Virus record (IMG/VR): IMGVR_UViG_646311924_000020
Source of the DNA: a virus
Lineage: Duplodnaviria > Heunggongvirae > Uroviricota > Caudoviricetes
DNA: 43,730 nt
Reading direction: 5' to 3' (one strand)
Below the pieces are notes generated by a model. The model was not told the DNA's origin. It searched no databases and saw nothing but the letters and a program-made list of their open reading frames with translations. Position 1 is the stretch's first letter. The number at the start of each line of letters is the position of its first letter. This document shows positions 1,863-2,929 of the stretch, piece by piece. The position numbers and the translations under genes were made by a program.

Positions 1863-2929
1863 ATGGTAGCCACTAGGCTAAATTCAATACAAATAATGCG
1901 CGGTATTGCAGCATTAATTGTTGTTGCATTTCACATAAGATACAACTTATCTGTTTATGAGCAAAAAAATCTTGGAGACTTAATGTTTTCAAATGGAGAA
2001 GTAGGTGTATACCTTTTTTTGTGATAAGCGGATTCATTATATCACTATCAACAAGAAGGAAAGAGTCGCCTTTAGAATTTAGCATTAAAAGATTACTTAG
2101 AATATATCCTCCATACATATTTTCTTTTGCAATACTGCTTTTTTTATTGAATGAAAATTATAGATTAATGGATGTAGTAAAATCATTAATACTTATACCA
2201 TTAAACTCGCACGCCGCAGGTCCATATTACGGGTATAGTATACTCTTAGTTGCGTGGACACTTAGTTATGAGTTGTTCTTTTATTTTTGCTTTCTTGTAT
2301 CAATGTCATTAAGCCAAAAATATAGAGCGGTAATATGTTCATTGATCCTGTCATCACTAATTATATTTGGCAATTATTATTTATTTGGATCGATTGGGGT
2401 AAATCCACACACAAGAGCATTTGATGGCGGTGGAATATTTGCAAGTATTATTTTCATAACAAACCCAATAATAATAAACTTTATATTAGGGATGCTTGCT
2501 GAGTTTATTTATAGCAATACAAAAACCAACAACAAACTTTTAAACAAAGCAATTAAAATGTTAGCTCCGATAGTTGCCGTAATATCAGTCTGGGGGATGC
2601 TATCACCTTCAATGTGGATGGGTGAAATGCAGTGGGCGATACCTTGCTTTGGTCTTGTAACCTCTTTGTCACTACTGGAGAAGTCTGGGGTTTCTTTTGA
2701 ATTTCCAAGTCTTGTAAAAATTGGAGCAATGTCATTCTCAATATATCTAATACACCCAATAATTATCGAATTATTAAGCCAAAAATATTTTGTTGTTTTT
2801 TGGCAGGATGGATTTACTAAGTTCTCAGTCATCATTTTGATTACAGTTTTTGCGGCAAGAATAATGTATGAAACAATTGAGATTCCATCACAAAAACTAG
2901 CCAGAAAGCTCATATCAAAAATAAGATGA
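1863..2929 (+). pseudogene. O-antigen acetyltransferase-like (acyltransferase_3 family, Oac-like), frameshifted in a T7 tract
   Basis: ATG at 1863 after AAGGAG encodes MVATRLNSIQIMRGIAALIVVAFH, a typical acyltransferase_3 N-terminus, then hits TGA at 2022-2024 right after T7 (2014-2020). The family continues in the +2 frame as the 302 aa multi-pass ORF 2021-2929 (VISGFIISLS...). Adding one T restores GVYLFFVISGFI. Confidence 0.7.

Follow-up and report, generated by a model that had tools for sequence, protein, structure and literature searches.

A run of seven T residues interrupts a predicted acyltransferase gene in a 43,730-nucleotide (nt) stretch of viral DNA (Caudoviricetes; IMG/VR record IMGVR_UViG_646311924_000020), which is analyzed here at its full length and referred to as the window. 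The question raised by this locus is whether the interruption represents a sequencing error, the genuine decay of a gene, or a reversible slipped-strand switch of O-antigen acetylation, these being the three origins put forward in an earlier reading made from the letters alone (the sequence-only reading). As detailed below, the seven-T (T7) form is a genuine inherited allele and the commonest form in sequenced Escherichia coli O111. It is probably a common loss-of-function allele, representing one of several independent knock-outs which are concentrated at composition-driven homopolymers.

Reading frames and motifs of the split gene

The T7 run occupies exactly positions 2014 to 2020, where the window reads ...GGTGTATACC TTTTTTT GTGATAAGC... 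(immediate surroundings, TACC-TTTTTTT-GTGATAA), and it lies at the junction of two open reading frames (ORFs), as follows.

1793-1821, plus strand: promoter-like site, candidate only (TTGATG, 17-nt spacer, TAGAAT; 9 of 12 matches in a consensus scan)
1851-1856, plus strand: Shine-Dalgarno sequence AAGGAG, 6 nt ahead of the ATG at 1863, by direct reading
1863-2024, plus strand: 5' acyltransferase fragment (ORF1), ATG start, 53 amino acids (aa), stop codon TGA at 2022-2024 right after the T run
2014-2020, plus strand: T7 run, frameshift site (tract 1); the intact allele is T8 (CTT TTT TTT, encoding L51, F52, and F53 of the FFXISG motif)
2021-2929, plus strand: 3' acyltransferase fragment (ORF2), GTG start, 302 aa, in the -1 frame relative to ORF1

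ORF1 crosses the run as CTT TTT TTG before reaching the TGA, and the addition of one T produces a 1068-nt ORF of 355 codons. All coordinates of the sequence-only reading, in which the frame stops right after the run and a single T joins it to the 302-aa ORF, were thus confirmed. ORF1 carries R13-X10-H24 of the first transmembrane helix, and ORF2, which corresponds to residues 54 to 355 of the intact protein, holds RXXR (R77, R80) and the remaining transmembrane helices. Translation of ORF2 on its own is believed to be unlikely, because direct reading of the sequence reveals no site comparable to AAGGAG ahead of the GTG at 2021. The promoter-like site at 1793-1821 is considered a candidate only, since such sites are no more frequent in the upstream region than in shuffled sequence.

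The repaired protein matches the Pfam family Acyl_transf_3 (PF01757) over the full length of the profile and without a break (residues 7 to 333 on profile positions 2 to 322 of 326; 99.6 bits, with a cut-off of 31 bits). When taken alone, the 302-aa piece matches profile positions 53 to 322 at 65.3 bits, and the 53-aa piece matches positions 2 to 51 at 18.7 bits, which is below the cut-off. These two matches abut (51/53), as would not be expected by chance, and on this profile evidence the two ORFs are halves of one Acyl_transf_3 gene. The proposal that an acyltransferase_3 gene is split at the T run therefore stands, as does the homology of both halves to one continuous acyltransferase, on which that proposal had been made to depend.

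Bacterial AT3 carbohydrate acetyltransferases are defined by the motifs R/K-X10-H, FFXISG, and RXXR (PMC7448272), all of which are present in the repaired protein as R13...H24, F52-F53-V-I-S56-G57, and R77-L-L-R80, respectively. In an alignment of this protein with 17 homologs (27 to 47% identity), residues R13, H24, G48, V49, F52, F53, S56, G57, R77, and R80 are invariant across the 18 sequences, and the Salmonella OafA mutants R14A, H25A, R69A, and R72A retain less than 1% of activity (PMC7448272). In the T7 allele, FFXISG is divided and R-X10-H is separated from the rest of the protein. The T7 copy in the window should be inactive, because the essential R-X10-H motif is cut off from the long ORF.

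Frequency of the T7 allele and other lesions in the gene

Of 5426 complete E. coli genomes searched, 21 contain the 1181-bp region spanning the gene, always as a single copy, and with few exceptions these are O111:H8, O111:H-, or O111:NM. Tract 1 is T7 in 12 of the 21, T8 in 8, and T6CT in 1, and the window itself is likewise T7. Intact versions of 355 or 356 aa are annotated in five complete E. coli genomes, such that the gene is kept in only 5 of the 21. Among public sequences, the 302-aa product is present on at least 1000 contigs, and the public collection indexes the exact product in 1263 blocks, among them the finished reference AP010960 (O111:H- strain 11128). The intact forms amount to about 316 contigs, or at most about one in five, and are distributed as follows.

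Intact 355 aa, main haplotype: 125 contigs
Intact 356 aa, extra Ile from the AAT expansion: 177 contigs
Intact 355 aa, P248S: 11 contigs
Intact 355 aa, divergent haplotype: 3 contigs

Single-base homopolymer miscalls are common in long-read assemblies, and the missing T could in principle be such an error in this assembly, the real genome being T8. This explanation is scarcely credible, as the identical T7 run recurs in the 12 complete genomes, in AP010960, and on well over 1000 public contigs. Eight of the T7 complete genomes match the 1181-base query at 100%, the T7 genomes originate from several laboratories, and one sequencing project (CP0774xx-CP0776xx records) reports both T7 and T8 genomes. 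A sequencing error as the origin of the interruption is thus effectively excluded.

In those T7 complete genomes whose annotation was read, the 302-aa remnant (RefSeq WP_001345271.1) bears the plain name "acyltransferase family protein" and is not flagged as a pseudogene, such that a survey of gene presence would count the dead allele as a present gene. A "frameshifted" flag was encountered only on sequence L011, which carries a different frameshift (listed below).

The sequence-only reading had pointed to one homopolymer; two further length-variable homopolymers (1963-1969 and 2139-2145) are present in the same gene, alongside a trinucleotide repeat. These features, and the alleles that alter the gene in other strains, are as follows.

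1963-1969, plus strand: A7 run, mutation-prone homopolymer; the A6 allele yields a 39-aa product
2139-2145, plus strand: second T7 run (tract 2), in frame at T7; in other strains the gene is broken here by T8, by T6, or by a one-base deletion next to the run
2467-2475, plus strand: (AAT)3 repeat; (AAT)4 in L012 and L013 adds an Ile (NPIIIN to NPIIIIN) and keeps the frame
Tract 2 lengthened to T8: L011
Tract 2 shortened to T6: L019 (95-aa product on 48 contigs)
C next to tract 2 lost: L015
A5 to A4 at 2777-2781, together with T-to-C F53S and the nonsense mutation G2030T: L014 (56-aa nonsense form on 138 contigs)
Nonsense mutation G2593A on top of T7: L018 (a second hit)

The downstream product of the tract 2 breaks (T8, T6, and C loss combined) is 253 aa in length and present on 156 contigs. 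The A6 allele was seen only in the protein cluster, as the 39-aa P0018 (ending ...YEQKILET; 188 contigs), which equals the translation obtained after deletion of one A. The AAT repeat constitutes a third kind of slippage-prone repeat in this gene, and the resulting 356-aa form outnumbers the 355-aa form of the main haplotype.

Irreversible lesions and a double hit represent the signature of repeated gene loss rather than of a switchable state. Of the origins initially considered, genuine decay therefore fits best, given the many independent lesions, the nonsense mutations, and the second lesion on a T7 background. It is proposed that replication slippage shortened the T8 run to T7, in which case translation from the real start would end after 53 residues and leave a 302-aa frame which would have neither a ribosome-binding site nor the catalytic R-X10-H helix. 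The same gene has been knocked out repeatedly in other lineages, mostly at the three A/T homopolymers, a pattern which probably reflects the recurrent inactivation of a dispensable or disadvantageous accessory gene at mutational hot spots. Slippage back to T8 is mechanistically possible and may have happened, presumably at ordinary mutational rates rather than through an evolved high-frequency switch.

Gene loss, switching, and recoding

Whether the homopolymers are dedicated to switching was assessed from their composition and conservation. The gene is 32.5% G+C, employs TTT for 24 of its 29 Phe codons and AAA for 13 of its 16 Lys codons, and holds three of the nine homopolymers of at least 7 bases in the window. 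Upon permutation of synonymous codons, at least three runs of at least 7 bases arose in 14% of trials and a run of at least 8 bases in 34%. The codons for L-F-F in the three relatives examined are CTG TTT TTC, TTG TTT TTC, and TTA TTT TTT, and those in the oac gene of Shigella phage Sf6 read TTC TTT; the T8 tract is accordingly absent from all three relatives and from Sf6 oac. Two AT-rich relatives harbor two 7-base runs each, at other positions. The over-representation (P = 0.14 and P = 0.34) or conservation that would mark the tract of a contingency locus was thus not found, and the homopolymers look like by-products of base composition and of a Phe-, Ile-, and Lys-rich protein sequence rather than conserved contingency tracts.

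The recurrence of length changes at tract 1 was evaluated by means of linked sites. Across positions 1700 to 4650, which encompass the gene and the receptor-binding part of the tailspike, 20 closely related sequences contain almost no informative site except for a C/T difference at 2606, located 592 bp from tract 1. The observed combinations were as follows.

T8 with C2606: 125 + 177 contigs
T8 with T2606: 11 contigs
T7 with C2606: at least 1000 contigs
T7 with T2606: 15 + 83 + 4 contigs
T7 with the AAT insertion: 4 contigs
T8 with the AAT insertion: 177 contigs

All four combinations of T7/T8 with C/T at 2606 are present, and the same applies to T7/T8 with and without the AAT insertion. Because the gene is single-copy in each genome, and indel rates climb exponentially with run length (PMC8510543), these combinations are most simply read as the outcome of two or more independent changes in the length of the T run. 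The shared haplotypes could also have arisen through recombination among mosaic P22-like prophages: the mosaicism of the prophage flanks is strong, 400 to 900 differences separating one backbone type from another, and T7 is present on several backbones. The 3-kb chromosomal flank, when employed as a host tree, yielded two singleton SNPs (single-nucleotide polymorphisms) only and no informative site. The prophage side was dropped as a marker of descent, being so mosaic that it reflects recombination rather than descent.

The head-binding region of the tailspike and the ant/arc/mnt region are highly mosaic across L001 to L021, the acyltransferase gene and the receptor-binding part of the tailspike are almost invariant, and a recombination boundary is located inside the tailspike gene near 4650. 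In L014 and L015 (strains 8E and HCM-22C-2), a 98.5% identical acyltransferase-tailspike module (approximately 1640-6140) directly follows tRNA-Arg (argW) and intS, whereas the window occupies the dacD/sbcB site with its integrase at the far end. Evidently, this module has been transferred among P22-like backbones that carry different integrases.

In O111 populations, O-antigen acetylation might be governed by a reversible slipped-strand contingency switch formed by the T8/T7 run, possibly in concert with the other two homopolymers, which would trade protection from superinfecting phage against immune or other costs. We consider this unlikely, although part of what the sequence-only reading proposed in this regard holds. 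The gene contains an in-ORF repeat that toggles the frame (T7 out of frame, T8 in frame), both lengths occur among near-identical strains, and each is found on the main, 2606T, and AAT-insertion haplotypes, implying either recombination or no fewer than two separate tract changes; tract 2, moreover, varies in both directions (T6 and T8). What argues against a switch is that a run of 8 T is short for a mismatch repair-proficient E. coli, that the number of runs fits base composition and the tract is missing from the relatives, and that neither T6 nor T9 was observed at tract 1. Furthermore, nonsense mutations and double hits, which are irreversible, coexist with the tract changes, intact alleles are in the minority, and recombination between the highly mosaic flanks could account for the shared haplotypes.

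Precedents for such a switch are available and are instructive in both directions. In Vibrio cholerae O1, the A8 and A9 runs of wbeL and manA, respectively, control the O-antigen and phage resistance (Seed et al. 2012, PMC3441752). As is the case here, these are short A/T runs within O-antigen-related ORFs, where a one-base loss causes early truncation of the product; the frameshifted allele is found in natural isolates, the locus is linked to phage interaction, and a gene may contain more than one tract (two in manA). In contrast, the V. cholerae tracts are 100% conserved within the species and the intact state predominates, whereas the present tract is lineage specific, the broken state predominates, and irreversible lesions co-occur. 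In V. cholerae, experimental selection with phage yielded the frameshift variants, and manA was shown to revert, whereas the variants described here come from sequenced genomes; the analogous A7 allele of wbeL showed no detectable reversion (PMC3441752). The phase-variable AT3 gene oafA of Haemophilus influenzae likewise specifies a surface-sugar acetyltransferase whose frame is toggled by an in-gene repeat, and it too was first seen frameshifted in a reference genome. It differs in that its repeat is a tetranucleotide, its host is rich in contingency loci, its product acts on the inner-core heptose of lipooligosaccharide, and the gene is not phage-borne (PMC9558356). The gtrABC and oafB systems of Salmonella and P22 resemble the present locus in that they are prophage-associated, modify the O-antigen, and occupy the tailspike/att end of P22-like genomes, and their ON/OFF heterogeneity affects phage interaction, but they are switched through upstream Dam/OxyR methylation patterns and not through the coding sequence.

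The T7 allele might also be dead in appearance only. In addition to what was pointed out in the sequence-only reading, the T7 run sets an in-frame U_UUU_UUG directly before the stop codon, as specified below.

2015-2024, plus strand: in-frame heptamer T_TTT_TTG (2015-2021) followed by the TGA stop; by frame arithmetic, a formal -1 slippery site into ORF2

A -1 slip on this heptamer, or the addition of a U within U7 by RNA polymerase, would yield a low level of full-length enzyme ("leaky OFF"), comparable to the situation in herpesvirus thymidine kinase, where frameshifting compensates for homopolymer indels. It is true that the heptamer is of the X_XXY_YYZ type, in the correct phase into the downstream frame, with the 0-frame stop immediately after it, that the predicted product equals the intact protein except for F53L, that most genomes show no other damage in the T7 allele, and that "savior" indels rescued by low-level frameshifting have been described (reviewed in PMC5009743). 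This mechanism is nonetheless very unlikely to be relevant here, as neither an efficient motif or stimulator nor a conserved two-ORF arrangement was found. In E. coli, U_UU.U_UU.G is missing from the list of motifs whose unstimulated frameshifting exceeds 0.1%, and the U_UU.G tetramer reaches only 1.8- to 3.6-fold over background even with a pseudoknot (PMC4066793). The downstream 89 nt fold more weakly than shuffled sequence (z = +1.48), no structure being predicted, and the homologs retrieved outside the protein's own cluster are single full-length ORFs. Efficient bacterial transcriptional slippage has been described for runs of about 9 (PMC5009743), and F53 is invariant in the family, such that the F53L product might be impaired. 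The -1 frameshift reading was therefore set aside on account of its weak motif and lack of a stimulator; a trace of read-through product is conceivable, and nothing suggests that it is functional.

A more speculative proposal, to which we assign a slim chance, is that the three A/T runs together form a low-rate reversible mutational switch, possibly leaky through -1 slippage on the U_UUU_UUG-UGA of the T7 allele. Were this the case, a minority of the cells in any population of O111 lysogens would be O-acetylated at all times, which would alter both O111 serology and the susceptibility to tailspike-bearing phages, and the locus would represent a contingency locus on a temperate phage in a mismatch repair-proficient E. 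coli pathogen.

The preferred explanation, namely recurrent loss of function at composition-driven homopolymers, also has points weighing against it. T7 and T8 both persist on shared haplotypes, a pattern which a slow reversible switch would equally produce, and the evidence consists of assembled genomes, such that heterogeneity within a strain may exist. The T7 allele being otherwise undamaged in the majority of genomes, and the prophage appearing intact, the loss would have to be recent or the gene still occasionally useful. Clonal O111:H8 outbreak strains are heavily sampled, which inflates the T7 count, and the predominance of T7 therefore says little about selection. Finally, the substrate assigned to the protein is putative, and no study of O111 O-antigen acetylation by this protein was found in the literature.

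Prophage setting, putative substrate, and implications

According to the RefSeq annotation of a near-identical genome, the window corresponds to a complete-looking P22-like prophage between dacD and sbcB of an O111-type E. coli, with genes for terminase, portal, scaffold, coat, and ejection proteins, the tailspike, an ant/arc/mnt immunity region, lysis functions, a nin region, a repressor, and an integrase. The acyltransferase gene is situated at the prophage end and is convergent with the tailspike gene, a position typical of lysogenic conversion genes. The features adjoining it are as follows.

2934-2964, no strand assigned: perfect 12-bp hairpin with a 7-nt loop (-20.3 kcal/mol, z = -5.0), between the convergent acyltransferase and tailspike genes
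2970-4907, minus strand: P22-like tailspike gene (Pfam Head_binding and Beta_helix)

The hairpin is likely a bidirectional terminator, by analogy with the one annotated at the matching position in Sf6, and it was missed by a simple terminator scan.

Oac (OacA) of Shigella phage Sf6 is an AT3-only O-antigen O-acetyltransferase and the product of a lysogenic conversion gene, and it is among the closest counterparts in kind. Both proteins belong to the same Pfam family, are of similar size (333 aa for Oac, 355 aa here), and share the R-X10-H, FFXISG, and RXXR motifs. In the protein studied here, PF01757 is the sole Pfam match within the 355 aa, with no fused SGNH domain, and its distant homologs (down to 27% identity among those aligned) are likewise single proteins of 350 to 400 aa with PF01757 alone. 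The gene order also corresponds: in Sf6, the tailspike and terminator are followed by oac on the opposite strand and then by int. This convergent layout bears out the suggestion of the sequence-only reading that the gene occupies the O-antigen modification position beside the tailspike of P22-like phages, and the Sf6-type int-acetyltransferase-tailspike order next to argW is also found in L014 and L015. The two enzymes nonetheless belong to separate lineages, a direct comparison aligning just the N-terminal 189 residues at 28% identity (E = 2e-10), and Sf6 oac harbors no run of at least 7 bases, whereas the window copy is frameshifted. The tailspike head-binding domain is 79% identical to that of Sf6, but the receptor-binding part is unrelated, and the sugar target therefore differs from that of Sf6, here being presumably the O111/O35 antigen.

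The nearest protein outside the 90% identity cluster to which the protein belongs is 46% identical to it. No NCBIfam family matches the protein, and there is no solved structure among its sequence relatives. A megablast search of the gene against 50,697 phage records yielded no match, and tblastn against phage records returned matches of at most 41% identity (at most 31% over the full length); it is therefore concluded that no sequenced free phage carries the gene. Likewise, searches of the literature on O111 or O-antigen acetylation, and on an O111 acyltransferase in a P22-like prophage, identified no study of this gene. Judged by sequence and context, which agree in all respects, the gene specifies an AT3-only membrane acyltransferase of the Oac kind and is a lysogenic conversion gene, encoding a new, putative Oac-like acetyltransferase. 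The kind of gene, its genomic position, and the mode of its inactivation are all already known, and the mechanism is not new.

Regarding the substrate, the 90% cluster includes proteins of Salmonella serovar Adelaide, whose O35 antigen matches that of E. coli O111, and two more distant homologs adjoin phage tail or beta-helix genes. The module thus appears to follow the O-antigen type, which supports the O111/O35 antigen as the substrate, and we infer that the intact gene product would O-acetylate the O111/O35 O-antigen which is recognized by the neighboring tailspike. In its published structure, the O111 repeat unit shows no O-acetyl group, in contrast to the O16 unit of the same table, which has one (PMC6436433); this observation is consistent with a dead gene in most O111 strains.

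Several further features of the prophage and its surroundings were recorded. In the near-identical RefSeq genome, a frameshift is annotated for only one other small ORF (approximately 34518-34740). A HumD/UmuD-like translesion polymerase pseudogene fragment (approximately 1511-1761, minus strand; frameshifted, with an internal stop, and partial) lies between dacD and the acyltransferase gene in several genomes, and no att direct repeat of at least 12 nt was found between the two prophage ends. A NUMOD4-domain gene in the virion assembly block (approximately 12658-13191) and an HNH endonuclease gene in the nin region (approximately 27407-27973) look like homing endonuclease-type insertions, and tRNA-Thr and tRNA-Asn genes are located at approximately 25250-25405, as in Sf6. 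In three strains (L004, L011, and L035), including reference strain 11128, an IS3-family element is positioned between sbmC and dacD (IS1203 in L004 and L011). In strain 2013C-4081, dacD is truncated by a Mu-like prophage, and lambdoid early genes stand in place of the left flank in strain 2013C-3250, a T8 strain.

O111 is a major non-O157 Shiga toxin-producing E. coli serogroup, and serotyping, candidate vaccines, diagnostics, and phages are all directed at its O-antigen. Should the O111 antigen be acetylated by the intact gene product, strains of the same serogroup may differ in surface chemistry, a difference which standard annotation would conceal by listing the broken gene as a normal 302-aa protein. 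In practical terms, the locus may serve as a marker of possible hidden heterogeneity of the O111 O-antigen, and it calls for a correction to the RefSeq annotation of the 302-aa remnant. More generally, it represents a natural example of how short homopolymers in AT-rich, horizontally acquired genes concentrate loss-of-function mutations.

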